IMG/VR virus record: IMGVR_UViG_3300014819_000003
Coordinates: 1-64,000 of that record
Source: a virus
Direction: 5' to 3' (one strand)
Length of the DNA: 64,000 nucleotides
Below, piece by piece: positions 1-5,097 of the stretch. Below the pieces are notes generated by a model. The model ran no database searches. It had not been told where the DNA came from and saw only the letters and a list, made by a program, of their open reading frames with translations. A program made the position numbers and the translations under genes. Numbering within the stretch: the first letter of the stretch is position 1; each line of letters opens with the position of its first letter.

Positions 1-102
1 TGTGGAGATAACTCCAAAAGAATATGCGTATTCGCTATAACCTTTTTCTTTTGCGATAGCAATTAGGCTATCAAGTATTTTTGTTCTGTCTAAACTATTC
101 AT
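1..102 (-). CDS. small hypothetical early protein, truncated at window edge (MNSLDRTKILDSLIAIAKEKGYSEYAYSFGVIST...)
   Basis: manual translation; AGAAAGG RBS upstream; promoter at 133-173. Confidence 0.7.
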   Translation of the reverse strand, partial: MNSLDRTKILDSLIAIAKEKGYSEYAYSFGVIST

Positions 103-132
103 TAGTTTTCCTTTCTAATTTTTCAGGCTTCT

Positions 133-211
133 AGCCTACCATTTTCTACTGACATTTTCAAATCCGACACGCCCAGATTTCGGGAAAAATTCGGGTGTGA
201 TAATAATCACG
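133..211 (-). promoter_or_regulatory. composite early promoter P1
   Basis: minus strand: CRP-like site 196-211, GGCGTGTC 166-173, TTGAAA-17-TAGGCT, TGTCAG 10 nt before -10. Confidence 0.75.
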
Positions 212-220
212 TCATAAACA

Positions 221-244
221 CCCTGTGGATAACCCTGTGGAAAA
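221..244. promoter_or_regulatory. tandem DnaA-box-like direct repeat
   Basis: CCCTGTGGATAA CCCTGTGGAAAA; TGTGGATAA is the exact reverse complement of TTATCCACA. Confidence 0.55.
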
Positions 245-300
245 CGTGGCGGCAAATGTTGAAACTTCAACCAATTTAGTCAAAGTTTCAACCATTTAAT

Positions 301-447
301 TTAGATCTTTATTTCATTCCATTTCATCTCAGCAATTTCTTTACGCAAATTTTTATTTTCAATTTCAAATCTACGCAAATTCATTAGCATTCCAAAAAAG
401 AAAACGCCGAATGAAATTAGAGCGAATGTCAAAATTATTTCTGTCAT
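301..447 (-). CDS. 48-aa membrane-anchored hypothetical protein (not in ORF track)
   Basis: MTEIILTFALISFGVFFFGMLMNLRRFEIENKNLRKEIAEMKWNEIKI; ATGA overlap with upstream gene. Confidence 0.7.
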   Translation of the reverse strand: MTEIILTFALISFGVFFFGMLMNLRRFEIENKNLRKEIAEMKWNEIKI

Positions 448-635
448 GCGTTTATTAGTCCTAACTCATCAACGCCACACGCTTTCTCAAAACGGGCTTT
501 ATCAAATCTGTCATTATCAGCGAGAAAGAATTGAGCAAATTCCTCTACTAAATCCTCAAAAACCTGTGGGTGTATCTCGCCAGAAAATCCAGCGAGAATG
601 TTAGCAGTTTCAATATAGTCTTTACGAGTCATCAT
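444..635 (-). CDS. small hypothetical phage protein
   Basis: MTRKDY...DNDRFDKARFEKAC motif typical of small phage proteins; GAGGAG RBS. Confidence 0.8.
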   Translation of the reverse strand: MMTRKDYIETANILAGFSGEIHPQVFEDLVEEFAQFFLADNDRFDKARFEKACGVDELGLINA

Positions 636-896
636 TTAGTTATTCTCCTCATCTAGTAGAATGAACGCATGAGTGCCACCTTCATTAACACGCTCTAATT
701 CTGAAAGTAATTCATCACGAGTTAGAAGTGAAGCATTACCTACTAATTCTGTTACTGCTTGAATGTTTAGGTCTGTTACAACCTGCGTAGGCATTTTAGC
801 AAGTGTGCCTGCGAATGGAGAGTCAGCGTTAATTCTTGAAATAAATTTTACGCCATCAACCACGAATGGATAGTCTGTATAGTTAGTTGTTGTCAT
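636..896 (-). CDS. hypothetical protein (start revised to MTTTNY)
   Basis: AGAAAGGT RBS before ATG at 896. Confidence 0.75.
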   Translation of the reverse strand: MTTTNYTDYPFVVDGVKFISRINADSPFAGTLAKMPTQVVTDLNIQAVTELVGNASLLTRDELLSELERVNEGGTHAFILLDEENN

Positions 897-897
897 T

Positions 898-1020
898 TTA
901 GTTTTTACCTTTCTTGGGTGTTTTAGTTGTATTGACAAGTTTAGCGATTTTCTCTAAGTTTGTCAAGCGAGTAGCCTCACGCTCTTTCTTGACTAATTCT
1001 TGGAATTCATGAAGTTTCAT
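898..1020 (-). CDS. 40-aa basic helical hypothetical protein (not in ORF track)
   Basis: MKLHEFQELVKKEREATRLTNLEKIAKLVNTTKTPKKGKN; TAATG coupling to upstream gene. Confidence 0.65.
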   Translation of the reverse strand: MKLHEFQELVKKEREATRLTNLEKIAKLVNTTKTPKKGKN

Positions 1021-1214
1021 TAGTCTGCCACCTTTACTGCGACAGTAGCCCAACGATTACCATTGAAGCGAATTGCGTAGGCTTCATAGCCGTCAAGCCA
1101 AATATCCTCACGCTTTTCTGCGAAATTGATTTCGCCATATTGATATTTTCTCGCAAGTGAGCGAGGGTAGTAAGTGTGACCTATTAGCAGGTCTGTAATT
1201 GAATAACTTTTCAT
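1020..1214 (-). CDS. hypothetical early protein
   Basis: ORF with AGAAAGGT RBS and own promoter. Confidence 0.75.
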   Translation of the reverse strand: MKSYSITDLLIGHTYYPRSLARKYQYGEINFAEKREDIWLDGYEAYAIRFNGNRWATVAVKVAD

Positions 1215-1239
1215 AGTTTTTACCTTTCTTTATAAATCT

Positions 1240-1304
1240 ATTATTTCATTTTTTTTCTCAAAAGTCAAAGTGACACGCCGTCTATTTTTGTGGCGTAGGT
1301 CACA
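1240..1304 (-). promoter_or_regulatory. composite early promoter P2
   Basis: CRP-like site 1289-1304; GGCGTGTC-N3-TTGACT-17-AATAAT. Confidence 0.7.
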
Positions 1305-1494
1305 AGGGGAGAATATCTCTCCCGTAGTATTCAACGGCATCAACGATATTCATTACGCCTTTATATTCACGGCAATTTGAGCAGATACTATCCCAACGAT
1401 CAAAAGTGCGTGAGCAGAATACGCAAATATTATCCTGAATTGAATAACCATTATCAATTAGAAAATCTGCTATTTCAATTATTTTGTTAGTCAT
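1300..1494 (-). CDS. small zinc-ribbon protein
   Basis: CVFC...CSNC; AGAAAGG RBS. Confidence 0.75.
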   Translation of the reverse strand: MTNKIIEIADFLIDNGYSIQDNICVFCSRTFDRWDSICSNCREYKGVMNIVDAVEYYGRDILPL

Positions 1495-1523
1495 AAGTTT
1501 TCCTTTCTTTTTCTTACTCCGTA

Positions 1524-1611
1524 AGTCTAGCAGAAATCTCTGACAAAATCAAATCCAAATCACGCTTAGATTTTGTGAGAAATATCACAAGAAACGTAAG
1601 CACGACACGCC
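1524..1611 (-). promoter_or_regulatory. composite early promoter P3
   Basis: perfect TGTGA-N6-TCACA 1574-1589; TTGATT-17-TAGACT with TGTCAG-N10; GACACGCC 1604-1611. Confidence 0.75.
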
Positions 1612-1682
1612 CGAGTGCGGGGGGCGGCAAATATTTTGCGGCAATTTTGCTAATCAATTAAAATTAGCAAAAATTATTTTTT

Positions 1683-1829
1683 TTATTCTACAACATCTAG
1701 AACATCAAAAACATCAAATTTAACTAAGTCACTTTCGGAAAGTGCTAAGAAAATTTTATTTAAATCAAACACAGCACCTAAATCTGTATCTGATTCAGTA
1801 ACGAAACTAATCAAAACATTTTTTTTCAT
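1683..1829 (-). CDS. 48-aa acidic hypothetical protein (not in ORF track)
   Basis: MKKNVLISFVTESDTDLGAVFDLNKIFLALSESDLVKFDVFDVLDVVE; AGAAAGGA RBS. Confidence 0.7.
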   Translation of the reverse strand: MKKNVLISFVTESDTDLGAVFDLNKIFLALSESDLVKFDVFDVLDVVE

Positions 1830-1845
1830 TTGTTTATCCTTTCTA

Positions 1846-2073
1846 TTATTTTTTTCTCATGTGTTTAGCATACTTGAGAAATAGTCTGCGATAACCACAG
1901 GTTTCGCAATAGTGATTTATTGAGGGTTTCACACTCTCAGATGTTTCTACTCTATAAGTAGGGTGCTTACAAGTAGGGTCATTACCTCTAACATTGTAGT
2001 CATTGTAGTATTTTTCTACTTTATCAAAAGACCAATAACCATTTACAATTTCATTTACTTTAATGTTAGTCAT
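1846..2073 (-). CDS. small Zn-binding hypothetical protein
   Basis: CKH...HYCETCG; AGAAAGGT RBS. Confidence 0.75.
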   Translation of the reverse strand: MTNIKVNEIVNGYWSFDKVEKYYNDYNVRGNDPTCKHPTYRVETSESVKPSINHYCETCGYRRLFLKYAKHMRKK

Positions 2074-2110
2074 TTTATCTAACCTTTCTTTTTATAGTTG
2101 AGATACTAAT

Positions 2111-2156
2111 TTATTTGCTAGGCTCATGTTATTTCTAACCTTATTTGCTAGGCTCA
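2111..2156. repeat. 16-bp direct repeat TTATTTGCTAGGCTCA x2 (30-bp period) inside an inverted repeat
   Basis: copies 2111-2126 and 2141-2156; flanked by GAGATACTAA...TTAGTATCTC. Confidence 0.9.
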
Positions 2157-2184
2157 CTTAGTATCTCTATTTTGTTATGTAGCA

Positions 2185-2271
2185 ATACTAACACCCACCA
2201 CTGACATTTTGAGGGAACAAAGTAGGGCAATTCGGACATTCTAAAAAACTTTTTTTGTGATAAGAGTCACA
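2185..2271 (-). promoter_or_regulatory. early promoter P4 (leftward member of divergent pair)
   Basis: TGTCAGTG-N8-TAGTAT, poor -35; perfect CRP site 2256-2271. Confidence 0.7.
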
Positions 2272-2371
2272 AACTTTCGGGCATTTCTATAAATGTCCAT
2301 AAGTATCGGCGTGTCTACTTGACAAATATTTTGCGGCAAATACCGCAAGTCCAAAATGTCCGATTTGTCCA

Positions 2372-2437
2372 TGTGACCAACACCACAAAAGACACGCATG
2401 ATTTAGACTTGACTTTGTCAGTAAGTTATAGTATTAT
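2372..2437 (+). promoter_or_regulatory. early promoter P5 (rightward member of divergent pair)
   Basis: CRP-like site 2372-2387; TTGACT-17-TATTAT with TGTCAG-N10. Confidence 0.75.
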
Positions 2438-2468
2438 TCTCCTATAACAAAAAGAAAGGTTAGAACAA

Positions 2469-2567
2469 ATGTTTGACTTAGCAGATTACCTAGACGGATA
2501 CGGCGTTGCCATTGCAATGGTGCTAGTGCTTGTGATTATCCCCTTCCTCCTCATTCTTGTGGGCTAA
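2469..2567 (+). CDS. 32-aa single-TM peptide (not in ORF track)
   Basis: MFDLADYLDGYGVAIAMVLVLVIIPFLLILVG; AGAAAGG RBS. Confidence 0.75.
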   Translation: MFDLADYLDGYGVAIAMVLVLVIIPFLLILVG

Positions 2568-2623
2568 ATCACACCAAGCCTACGGCGTGTCGCCTTGACT
2601 TTTGGCAGGGTATAGGATAGAAT
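2558..2623 (+). promoter_or_regulatory. composite early promoter P6
   Basis: CRP-like site 2558-2573; GGCGTGTC-N3-TTGACT-17-TAGAAT. Confidence 0.75.
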
Positions 2624-2671
2624 TCTCCTACAAAATTAAATAAGAAAGTGTCTAAAGAAAGGACAACTAAA

Positions 2672-2779
2672 ATGATAAAGAAAAATTGTATGCTATGTGG
2701 TCAGACCACTCATGTATCTAAACGCAGTATCCCTGCGATATGTCCGAATTGTATAGATTCGCTAAATAGTGTGAGATAA
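2672..2779 (+). CDS. 35-aa zinc-ribbon micro-protein (not in ORF track)
   Basis: MIKKNCMLCGQTTHVSKRSIPAICPNCIDSLNSVR; AGAAAGGA RBS. Confidence 0.7.
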   Translation: MIKKNCMLCGQTTHVSKRSIPAICPNCIDSLNSVR

Positions 2780-2846
2780 GTCACACGGGTATGACCAGAC
2801 ATACCCACAAACCACCCCCCAAAATGTCAGTGGTATCAGATAGACT
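2770..2846 (+). promoter_or_regulatory. early promoter P7
   Basis: perfect CRP site 2770-2785; TGTCAGTG-N8-TAGACT, no recognisable -35. Confidence 0.7.
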
Positions 2847-2880
2847 ACCATTATTAGAAACTAAAGAAAGGTTAGAAAAA

Positions 2881-3072
2881 ATGCTAACACTAAATTACAC
2901 AATAGAAAAAGACGGAATTGAACTTTCCGAAATAAATAAACTCATGCTATCAGAGCGTCAGATAAATGACCTCATGGATACTCTTGTGGCTCATGGCTAC
3001 ACAGTATTAGAAATGTCAGTGGATAGTGCTACGATTATCCCTACAATTCACTATTCAGAAAGGAATAACTAA
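2881..3072 (+). CDS. hypothetical protein (start revised to MLTLNY)
   Basis: AGAAAGG RBS before 2881; upstream part of track ORF overlaps promoter P7. Confidence 0.7.
   Translation: MLTLNYTIEKDGIELSEINKLMLSERQINDLMDTLVAHGYTVLEMSVDSATIIPTIHYSERNN
3014..3035 (+). promoter_or_regulatory. internal promoter P8
   Basis: TGTCAGTG-N8-TACGAT upstream of RBS at ~3057. Confidence 0.6.
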
Positions 3073-3073
3073 G

Positions 3074-3181
3074 ATGATAAACTCAATTCAAAGAATAAAC
3101 TGTGACGAGTGTTATGGTCACGGCGTTATCTTCTACGGAGATGATAACGATTATGCCGTTGAACCTTGTGAGTGTATATGA
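3074..3181 (+). CDS. 35-aa Cys-rich micro-protein (CxxCxGxG motif; not in ORF track)
   Basis: MINSIQRINCDECYGHGVIFYGDDNDYAVEPCECI; AGAAAGGA RBS. Confidence 0.7.
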   Translation: MINSIQRINCDECYGHGVIFYGDDNDYAVEPCECI

Positions 3182-3303
3182 CCTACACTCATGAGCAACA
3201 ATTACGGCTCGCATGGATAACAAAATACGGAAGCCCCGAAGGGTATCACAAAGCAACACAACTAGAGAAAGAAGAAATACTAAATGAAACTAACAATAAC
3301 TAG
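3178..3303 (+). CDS. 41-aa hypothetical protein (not in ORF track)
   Basis: MTYTHEQQLRLAWITKYGSPEGYHKATQLEKEEILNETNNN; ATGA overlap. Confidence 0.55.
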   Translation: MTYTHEQQLRLAWITKYGSPEGYHKATQLEKEEILNETNNN

Positions 3304-3466
3304 CATGGCAGGCAATACTTCTAGCATGGAATTGCCAACTAAAGAAGATGTTTATTATTTTATTGACTTGTATAAATCAGCATTGAAAAAAAATCAGCGA
3401 GTAAAAATTACTTGCGATATTCTTGGAATTGACGGGTATTTACAAGGCACTAAACCAATACGCTAA
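3284..3466 (+). CDS. hypothetical protein
   Basis: ORF track; last gene before terminator. Confidence 0.7.
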   Translation: MKLTITSMAGNTSSMELPTKEDVYYFIDLYKSALKKNQRVKITCDILGIDGYLQGTKPIR

Positions 3467-3473
3467 AGCCCTC

Positions 3474-3512
3474 TAGTGCGATCTCTCCAATAGTGGTCGC
3501 ACTATTTTTTTT
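3474..3512 (+). terminator. intrinsic terminator closing the rightward early operon
   Basis: TAGTGCGATC...GGTCGCACTA followed by T-run. Confidence 0.85.
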
Positions 3513-3580
3513 GTATTTTTTTTCTAAATCATGCATCATACATCTTAGAAAAATATTCAGATTTTTGGTATAATGAAAAT

Positions 3581-3778
3581 ATGACAAACCACAACCTTTG
3601 TATCCACGTATACGAATATGTTAATTCCGAGGTTTGCCCTCATTGTGGGCGGTATACACATGAAGTAGATCGTGAACTACACTATAAACTCTTTAAGCAA
3701 TATTATGATGAAGGAAAACATCTAGCCTACAAATGCCCAATCGAGGGCGGTACCATAAGAGGCTGGTGGTCTATATAA
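3581..3778 (+). CDS. leaderless Zn-binding hypothetical protein
   Basis: TGGTATAAT 6 nt before ATG; CIH, CPHC motifs. Confidence 0.75.
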   Translation: MTNHNLCIHVYEYVNSEVCPHCGRYTHEVDRELHYKLFKQYYDEGKHLAYKCPIEGGTIRGWWSI

Positions 3779-3860
3779 AATACGCTATAGCACTCTTAAT
3801 TCTGCTATTTGGTTTGTTAAACTATTTTGCCTATTTGCAAAAAATCAACGGTATGTAAAA

Positions 3861-4061
3861 TTACCATTTTCCAACAGGACATTTAGCATTCTCTAACCCT
3901 GTTTTTAACTTCATAAAACATCCACACTTGCCACATCGTTGAGTCTTTGGTTTGAAAAATTCACAACTCTTACAAATTTCAAGGCGGTAGTTAGCAAGTT
4001 CTTCACCACTTCTTGGCGAGTTTGGATTTAACAAATCCCATGGCTTAACATCATCTGACAT
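3861..4061 (-). CDS. Cys-rich protein, DUF6171-like (start revised to MSDDV)
   Basis: RLEICKSC...RCGKCGCFM..K......CPVGKW; TATAAT and AAGGAAGG upstream. Confidence 0.75.
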   Translation of the reverse strand: MSDDVKPWDLLNPNSPRSGEELANYRLEICKSCEFFKPKTQRCGKCGCFMKLKTGLENAKCPVGKW

Positions 4062-4214
4062 ATAAAACCTTCCTTTAACTCCATTATATCCTATTGGCCG
4101 TATAGAATGCAAACCAGGTTATTGACGCTATTCGTATCTTTGATTCGTGTTAGTCATTGATGGTTTGTTATTCTTTTTGCGCCCCGCCGAAATACGTGAT
4201 ATAATTTCTTCATT

Positions 4215-4442
4215 ATGTCACCACAAGAATGGGCTGGATTCGTTGCAACGATCATAGGAATCGTCGGCTCGGTGGGACTAGTTTTGAGGTGGATCTTGAA
4301 AAAATATGTGCAAGAAATAATGACAGAACTAAAGCCAAACAGTGGATCTTCAATGAAAGATCAAGTAACACGGCTTGAGGATAAAGTCGATAAACTATAC
4401 GACGCTATTTTGATTCATCTTGAAGATCACGCTAATAAGTAA
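4215..4442 (+). CDS. small membrane protein (holin-like or lysis-associated, DUF2746-like)
   Basis: N-terminal TM helix, PNSGSSMKD motif, coiled coil. Confidence 0.6.
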   Translation: MSPQEWAGFVATIIGIVGSVGLVLRWILKKYVQEIMTELKPNSGSSMKDQVTRLEDKVDKLYDAILIHLEDHANK

Positions 4443-4493
4443 CTATATATTATATATATTATATTCTTTTACTATTTTCTCTCTTAATTAATT

Positions 4494-4522
4494 ATTATAC
4501 ACACACTAATTATTGTTGTCAA
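4494..4522 (-). promoter_or_regulatory. perfect-consensus sigmaA promoter pointing antisense to 4215-4442
   Basis: TTGACA-17-TATAAT on the minus strand. Confidence 0.7.
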
Positions 4523-4605
4523 GCAAATACCCCCACTTTTTGAAAAAATTTACCTAATCGTTATAAACTTTTATTTATTGTCCTAAATAATGTTAGAATG
4601 AACGT

Positions 4606-4667
4606 GCTGGCCCGTCAGGTTGCTCTCTACCCACCCCCACTGCCCCTGACGGGTTCAGCCTTATTTT
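4606..4667 (+). ncRNA. candidate small hairpin RNA with C-rich loop
   Basis: TGTTAGAAT -10 at 4591-4599; stem 4606-4619/4645-4659; U-rich tail. Confidence 0.45.
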
Positions 4668-4686
4668 CATGGTATAATCAAACATT

Positions 4687-5097
4687 ATGACCGAAAAATC
4701 CTTTGTTGTTTCTGACACCTATAAATTCGGAGCGAATCCAGCCACTATTCAATGGAATGTTGTTCGTGGCGATACTGCTACGCTAAAGGTAGACTTTCTA
4801 GATGATGATGAAGTAACAAAATGGAATATATCTACTTGGGATTTTGAGGCTACTGCTTATGATGCAAGTGGCGATGTATTAGATGAATTATCTGTGACTG
4901 CTACTACTGGATCGGTTACTATTACTGCCCCCGCCTCATTGACGGAAAAGTGGGGTACTACTTATAAAACCGTTGTAGCAGAACTACCTTTTGATTTAAC
5001 AGCACACATTCCAGTATCTGGTGAAGATACATCTTGGACACCAGTTATTGGTACAATTAGAGTATTGGGAGATGTAACTCCAGGAGGATCGTTATGA
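4687..5097 (+). CDS. virion protein, BppU-N/Ig-like
   Basis: VVRGDT...G.I.V motif; paralog of 5189 and 16215. Confidence 0.65.
   Translation: MTEKSFVVSDTYKFGANPATIQWNVVRGDTATLKVDFLDDDEVTKWNISTWDFEATAYDASGDVLDELSVTATTGSVTITAPASLTEKWGTTYKTVVAELPFDLTAHIPVSGEDTSWTPVIGTIRVLGDVTPGGSL

Follow-up and report, generated by a model that had tools for sequence, protein, structure and literature searches.

Which protein reads a short sequence that recurs among very small genes at one end of an uncultured virus? The sequence is the octamer GGCGTGTC, which contains the pentamer GACAC on its complementary strand, and the virus is represented by the IMG/VR record IMGVR_UViG_3300014819_000003. The window analysed here is the first 64 kb (64,000 nucleotides, nt) of this 91,275-bp linear viral contig, which has ~37% G+C. 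A first-pass annotation had taken the octamers for boxes of the actinobacterial regulator WhiA that abut the −35 element of promoters. Our analysis suggests that they are candidate protein-binding boxes in the immediate-early promoter region and that their reader is probably host WhiA acting with a WhiB-like (Wbl) partner, to which we assign a probability of roughly 60%. As a whole, the first-pass interpretation is thus partly supported: its core stands, whereas universal abutment on the −35 does not.

The octamer is confined to one end of the contig

Five exact copies of GGCGTGTC are present in the window, compared with 0.33 expected in 64 kb, and five were reached in 0 of 100 shuffles. The other 88 kb of the contig, outside the first 2.6 kb, contain no exact copy. 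A sixth site, GACACGCA at 2391-2398 on the plus strand, is an inverted copy with one mismatch; with this exception, one-mismatch variants occur at chance level over the contig. The sites first listed are thereby confirmed as five exact copies and one that deviates at a single position. The signal resides in the full octamer, because the pentamer GACAC by itself is not enriched (39 occurrences against 81 in shuffles; observed/expected 1.11 under an order-3 Markov model). An apparent avoidance of GACAC outside the region, seen against dinucleotide shuffles, disappeared under the order-3 Markov model and was discarded.

All six copies are intergenic (6/6), among very small genes that form a divergent cluster. 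Left of ~2250, in the region of leftward genes, are the three minus-strand octamers; right of this point are the exact plus-strand copies at 2308 and 2584 and the inverted copy at 2391. The contig is ~84% complete and its left arm runs past the contig start; further octamers and genes may be missing.

The octamer is identical to the WhiA/WhiB2 motif of M. tuberculosis

Read on the opposite strand, GGCGTGTC is letter for letter GACACGCC, the WhiA/WhiB2 motif of Mycobacterium tuberculosis. Chromatin immunoprecipitation sequencing (ChIP-seq) of WhiA, ChIP-seq of WhiB2, and in vitro IDAP-seq with pure WhiA all returned GACACGCC (PMC13473873), so the likeness of the GACAC boxes to WhiA sites extends over the whole 8-bp motif. 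An earlier M. tuberculosis ChIP-seq motif is CGACACGCCGn, and that of M. smegmatis WhiB2 is cGACACGc (PMC13473873). In Streptomyces venezuelae, WhiA binds as a monomer to asymmetric GACAC (PMC3781837).

The agreement extends beyond the octamer. A frequency matrix was built from 239 related-locus copies that lie outside selection by the search pattern; it has C or G before GGCGTGTC and G (82%) after it, which reads C-GACACGCC-(G/C) on the other strand. With these family flanks, 10/10 positions agree with the longest published motif, CGACACGCCG. In full-text literature searches, the mycobacterial WhiA paper was the sole source of the motif, and none of the papers covered described phage promoters with WhiA boxes.

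Octamers hold fixed positions on early promoters of related phages

A scan of IMG/VR for GGCGTGTCNNNTTGACT matched at least 120 loci. Those among the matches listed have mostly 34-41% G+C and 2-11 octamers each. Of the 120 matches listed, 83 have small early proteins in common with this phage, and the rest are mostly chance hits. The 83 related loci (845 kb) contain 327 exact octamers, compared with a mean of 11 per one-mismatch variant; the octamer is invariant in them, 20-30 times commoner than its one-mismatch neighbours, and it has stayed unchanged while the shared proteins diverged to a median of 39-61% identity.

Its position relative to the promoter is equally restricted. The gap from GGCGTGTC to TTGAC peaks at 3 nt in the related loci, and GACACGCC, a pattern not used in the search, shows a sharp peak at 10 nt from TTGAC with 41 copies. 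At promoter-like sites the two slots are occupied by 78 and 36 exact octamers, with one single-mismatch copy and no two-mismatch copy. Gaps between the octamer and a TGTGA-N6-TCACA box resembling CRP/GlxR sites are quantised, at 10/20 nt on one side and 3/13 nt on the other, which indicates face-of-helix coupling. Only such discrete boxes are conserved between related promoters, and the spacers vary. In relatives L013 and L036, a TTATAAC-type palindrome or repeat stands in place of the CRP-like box and the octamer is kept. Moreover, four other genomes of ~100 kb, three of them complete, again have the octamer limited to 1-3 kb. The proposed tie between octamers and promoters is therefore upheld on a larger scale, as fixed and conserved positions on early promoters across a large phage family.

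Two sets of candidates were set aside. Three contigs with 45% GC (L016, L029, and L090) carry the octamer antisense between terminase and portal and were uninformative, and most of what a search for octamers in inverted pairs turned up was high-GC coding DNA matched by chance.

Promoter architecture in the window

A motif upstream of a σA-type −35 was found for the copies at 166, 1272, 2391, and 2584, but not for the one at 1604, which is an upstream copy, or the one at 2308, which lacks a −10 (Table 1). A consensus promoter scan made independently called promoters at 1268-1240 (−), 2409-2437 (+), and 2595-2623 (+). Direct abutment on the −35, described at first as the general arrangement, is one of three placements, the others being the upstream position of 1604 and the inverted position of 2391 with its 10-nt spacing.

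The CRP-like boxes are confined to the same end of the contig as the octamers. All seven TGTGA-N6-TCACA boxes of the 91-kb genome (at most one mismatch) lie within 196-2785, and every one of them has a partner, either an octamer or a promoter, at a phased distance. The interval from the box to the −35 is 21 nt in the proximal (10+8+3) and distal (3+8+10) layouts alike, and both octamer slots are phased to this box. The copy at 166 resembles the proximal ones but has a wider gap to its box. The proximal geometry has GACAC in the template strand at 3 nt from the −35, and the distal geometry has it in the non-template strand at 13 nt. The GACAC centres of the two slots are 10 bp apart and in opposite orientations, as would suit a reader that is tethered and anchored at a single point.

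Table 1. Octamers, promoter elements, and neighbouring motifs in the window (ORF, open reading frame; aa, amino acids)
Feature	Position (strand)	Class	Layout	Gene or region
Octamer copy 1	166-173 (−)		CRP-like box 196-211, 22 nt upstream; octamer, 4 nt, −35 TTGAAA (161-156), 17 nt, −10 TAGGCT (138-133)	drives ORF from 102, leaving the contig start
Octamer copy 2	1272-1279 (−)	canonical proximal	CRP-like box 1289-1304, 9 nt, octamer, 3 nt, TTGACT (1268-1263), 17 nt, AATAAT (1245-1240)	heads leftward micro-gene operon 1214-301
Octamer copy 3	1604-1611 (−)	upstream	preceded by GC-rich block ~1612-1628; octamer 14 nt upstream of CRP-like box 1574-1589; box 21 nt upstream of TTGATT (1552-1547), 17 nt, TAGACT (1529-1524)	drives ORF 1494-1300
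Octamer copy 4	2308-2315 (+)	octamer + TTGACA + hairpin	octamer, 3 nt, TTGACA (2319-2324), no −10; then small hairpin 2331-2348	far-upstream part of the ~130-bp control region of the 2409 promoter
Inverted copy GACACGCA, one mismatch	2391-2398 (+)	distal	CRP-like box 2372-2387, 3 nt, octamer, 10 nt, TTGACT (2409-2414), 17 nt, TATTAT (2432-2437)	drives 32-aa ORF 2469-2567
Octamer copy 6	2584-2591 (+)	canonical proximal	CRP-like box 2558-2573, 10 nt, octamer, 3 nt, TTGACT (2595-2600), 17 nt, TAGAAT (2618-2623)	drives 35-aa Cys-rich ORF 2672-2779
TGTGA-N6-TCACA (CRP/GlxR-like) boxes, seven	196, 1289, 1574, 2256, 2372, 2558, 2770			
Promoter spacers with (A/T)TGTCAGTGG-N7-8-TAnnnT	2185-2206 (−), 2825-2846 (+), 3014-3035 (+), 139-155 (−), 1530-1546 (−), 2415-2431 (+)			
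ATGTCCGnTTTGTCC element	2355-2369, 2226-2240 (−)			
DnaA-box-like words	223-231 (TGTGGATAA), 235-241			
17-mer CAAATATTTTGCGGCAA	1628-1644, 2324-2340			
GGCGGCAAATGTT, related to the 17-mer	249-261			

Octamers followed by TTGACA form a subclass without a −10

The copy at 2308 is a member of a conserved non-promoter subclass in which the octamer and TTGACA are followed by a hairpin, without a −10. A TAnnnT sequence at 16-18 nt is present in 78 of 124 octamer+TTGACT sites compared with 1 of 27 octamer+TTGACA sites, and these counts justify the doubt, raised in the first-pass annotation, that 2308 is a promoter. The hairpin after TTGACA-type sites is more stable than that after the TTGACT type. 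A same-strand ORF end lies at most 40 nt away from 9 of 26 TTGACA-type sites, compared with 14 of 77 real promoters. Judged from these sequence features, copies of the 2308 type may be binding-only sites or terminator-associated "punctuation".

The promoter-early stem-loops (PeSLs) of T4-type phages join an early promoter to a stem-loop and are repeated at gene boundaries. The 2308-type subclass resembles them in part, with a promoter-like front half and a stem-loop at gene boundaries and with recurrence in relatives. Unlike PeSLs, it lacks a −10, and octamers without a stem-loop are found in bona fide promoters and at upstream spots as well.

A 17-mer, CAAATATTTTGCGGCAA, is repeated in the window, and the related GGCGGCAAATGTT is found once (Table 1). 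The CAAATATTTTGCGGCAA region at 2331-2348 forms a hairpin that was flagged as terminator-like on the minus strand. No Rfam matches were obtained over positions 1-5000.

The phage carries a WhiB gene and is related to Streptomyces phages

The first-pass annotation had proposed looking for whiB in the rest of the genome, and a WhiB-family gene is present at 80077-80358 of the whole contig (49 bits against PF02467). According to the literature consulted, Wbl proteins are restricted to Actinobacteria and the phages that infect them (PMC13013590). The portal protein and DnaE are 47% and 54% identical, respectively, to those of Streptomyces phages of the Stanwilliamsviridae, and the phage WhiB is orthologous to the WhiB of those phages and of Rhodococcus phages. 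Across at least 120 protein clusters it is 67-87% identical, far above the early proteins (39-61%); all WhiB homologues recovered are metagenomic. By these sequence relationships the phage is an actinophage. An origin from Firmicutes or cyanobacteria, considered on account of the low GC and the AAAGAAAGG ribosome sites, was dropped because of the WhiB match and the homologies to Streptomyces phages.

At least seven studies of freshwater and lake metagenomes contain DNA of this phage, and the Nanopelagicales are low-GC freshwater actinobacteria (PMC10202952). A low-GC freshwater actinobacterium, for example of the Nanopelagicales, is a reasonable but unproven guess for the host. DNA searches (megablast and distant) against cultured phages gave nothing useful, and the matches in a contig scan of genomes were phage contigs binned into non-actinobacterial metagenome-assembled genomes without WhiA.

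The leftward arm, from 82456-91114 of the contig into 1-2073 of the window, encodes glycosyltransferases, FkbM-type methyltransferases, a PIG-L-like deacetylase, and a Stealth-like protein. This content suggests that surface-glycan or DNA modification functions may be under the early leftward promoters. The micro-genes at 1-4500 share one type of ribosome site, AAAGAAAGG, placed 8-10 nt ahead of ATG and complementary to a 16S rRNA end of the Actinobacteria/Firmicutes type (CCUUUCU-3'), and several encode cysteine-rich peptides of 32-83 aa (CxxC...CxxC). Over the whole contig (1-91275), AGCT, CCGG, and CGCG are missing (~306, ~105, and ~105 expected, respectively), TCGA occurs 29 times against ~306 expected, and TGCA is doubled. 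The missing and depleted 4-bp palindromes look like stringent restriction-site avoidance.

Host WhiA with a Wbl partner as the candidate reader

The sepX complex of Streptomyces offers a structural model. In its cryo-electron microscopy structure, WhiB lies both on region 4 of σA and within the minor groove immediately upstream of the −35, the N-terminal domain of WhiA packs on WhiB, and WhiA's tethered helix-turn-helix (HTH) at the C terminus reads GACAC in the manner of σ region 4 (PMC10243135). Motif orientation and spacing vary among WhiA targets, and in vivo occupancy of its sites by WhiA requires WhiB (PMC10243135). By analogy, host WhiA would dock on the phage octamer, its σ-region-4-like C-terminal HTH recognising GACAC(GCC), and a WhiB-like protein on σA region 4 at the adjoining −35 would bridge it to RNA polymerase. 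The bridging protein could be a host WhiB2-type protein at the start of infection and the phage's own conserved WhiB later. Early phage transcription would then be tuned to the activity of host regulators of cell division and replication, and the fixed distances of the octamers from promoters suggest that the earliest phage genes may be coupled to the cell-cycle machinery of the host. Among the possible effects of WhiA and Wbl on the early promoters we favour stimulation, by activation or recruitment; taken by itself this is a tentative reading, with the odds slightly against it. It is possible, though we hold it to be doubtful, that lake actinophages, as a large family of global distribution, wire their immediate-early promoters to host WhiA and that phage WhiB replaces WhiB2 in a hybrid activator on σA.

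The phage sites are like WhiA/WhiB (WhiB2) promoters in their GACAC core, in the full GACACGCC with its CGACACGCCG flanks, in being asymmetric monomer-type sites just upstream of a σA −35 in either orientation, and in the presence of a WhiB-family protein (PMC10243135, PMC13473873). They differ in that they stand on a phage genome, at immediate-early promoters with near-consensus −35 and −10 elements, are tightly phased to a CRP-like box, and include extra copies off any −35. Unlike sepX, the phage has two quantised spacings from GACAC to the −35, of 3 and 13 nt. Class II and class I + II CAP/CRP promoters of Escherichia coli (PMC10243135) also have a site adjoining the −35 with a second factor upstream, and a face-of-helix specific spacing with 10-bp quantisation. 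In contrast to the class II CAP site, the proximal element of the phage is an asymmetric 8-mer rather than a dimer palindrome, and its proposed reader would need a bridging iron-sulfur protein on σ region 4.

Several observations weigh against WhiA as the reader or as an activator. The near-consensus −35 and −10 elements mean that the core promoters may need no activator. The sepX spacing, inferred from text fragments only, is ~7 nt (GCCAATT between motif and −35), which is neither 3 nor 13 nt. Many copies stand off any −35, either upstream of a CRP-like box or in the TTGACA-plus-hairpin subclass, so simple activation does not account for all of them. In the closest cultured relatives, the Streptomyces phages Wakanda, NootNoot, and Gilson, GACACGCC is not enriched (2-4 copies per 130 kb, equal to control). 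Finally, the motif-rich loci nearly all belong to one broad phage family, as judged from the proteins shared by 83 of the 120 matches listed, so that where they occur gives no means of telling whether the reader belongs to the host or is a conserved protein of the phage.

Alternative readers

The last two points would be expected of a sequence-specific protein encoded by the phage itself, such as an early-promoter shut-off factor or an activator, made or injected, with the WhiA match a coincidence or mimicry. A reader specific to the lineage would explain why the octamer is lacking in the Streptomyces relatives and why motif-rich loci come almost wholly from one family with common early genes, among which are many small ORFs of unknown function. 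Such a protein was not found. A WhiA-type HTH, σ region 4, and an annotated regulator were all looked for in the contig without a find, and the early ORFs matched no DNA-binding family and indeed no family at all. The sole HTH candidate, a 51-aa ORF at 65350-65505, matches the N-terminal DNA-binding module of HNH endonucleases, and a search for longer (fused) relatives of this phage's WhiB recovered none. The cognate DNA-binding protein that goes with a phage repressor operator is likewise missing from the contig, although with a contig ~84% complete its absence is not proven. Other arguments concern the octamer itself: promoters of the first genes must fire before any phage protein exists, the octamer is invariant at ~40% protein identity whereas phage operator/repressor pairs usually drift, and a 10/10 match to CGACACGCCG is improbable by chance. 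The stoperators of cluster A mycobacteriophages offer a comparison. They are asymmetric repressor sites in many copies, oriented with transcription, and the phage octamers are likewise short, asymmetric, multi-copy, and oriented, in short intergenic gaps of an actinophage. Unlike stoperators, which are genome-wide, read by a phage repressor, and different between subclusters, the octamers are confined to ~2.6 kb, are invariant over a deeply diverged family, and match a host-factor motif. We consider a phage-encoded reader rather unlikely.

Two further explanations do without WhiA. The octamer could belong to a repeated promoter/terminator cassette spread by recombination in the manner of the T4-type PeSLs, or be an upstream element that RNA polymerase reads directly through the α subunit C-terminal domain or σ. 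Modules do recur at gene boundaries, and the TTGACA subclass has no −10 and runs into a GC hairpin. Conservation, however, is restricted to discrete boxes between variable spacers, and the octamer occurs in two orientations, at several distances from the −35, and also upstream of the CRP-like box, so a fixed contact with RNA polymerase does not fit. The WhiA identity would also be left unexplained, and we regard these possibilities as improbable. A different host factor whose site is similar, for instance a response regulator or a further σ4-like HTH protein, seems more improbable still. The low-GC freshwater actinobacteria have no mapped regulons, and the nearby TGTGA-N6-TCACA, ATGTCCGnTTTGTCC, and TTATCCACA motifs show that several host-type factors may act here. 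Nevertheless, no other actinobacterial motif in the literature searched fits all 8-10 positions, and the WhiA motif is conserved from Streptomyces to Mycobacterium.

Other elements near the octamers

Several promoter spacers of the window carry the sequence (A/T)TGTCAGTGG-N7-8-TAnnnT (Table 1). The exact form TGTCAGTG-N7-9-TAnnnT occurs three times against 0.18 expected and resembles the mycobacterial RecA-NDp/PafBC element; the 161 and 2409 promoters have such an element together with the octamer. At M. tuberculosis recA, a WhiA peak adjoins the PafBC-type P1 promoter. The first-pass proposal that each gene unit reads a combination of CRP, WhiA/B, and PafBC inputs, and so senses the state of the host, is a hypothesis. 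The DnaA-box-like words TTATCCACA and TGTGGATAA adjoin octamers in this phage and in relatives L024, L033, and L062, and by sequence may represent a DnaA input or an origin. A ATGTCCGnTTTGTCC element is conserved just upstream (~2-10 nt) of the CRP-like box in distal-class promoters from 41 related loci.

Implications for actinophage biology

WhiB genes are among the commonest regulators of actinophages. If the octamers are WhiA sites, these phages provide natural, compact promoters by the dozen, whose WhiA boxes are exact and set at defined spacings. The cooperation of WhiA, Wbl, and σA, the role of orientation and distance, and host-growth sensing by phages of the most abundant freshwater bacteria would become directly testable, and the boxes would serve as a sequence signature from which the actinobacterial hosts of uncultured phages could be predicted. 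Should phage WhiB indeed join host WhiA on these promoters, the two docking slots one helical turn apart would reveal how the tethered WhiA HTH is positioned, and each promoter, through its phasing to CRP/GlxR-like boxes, would act as a logic gate for the growth state of the host. The same arrangement would explain why whiB is so common in actinophages.

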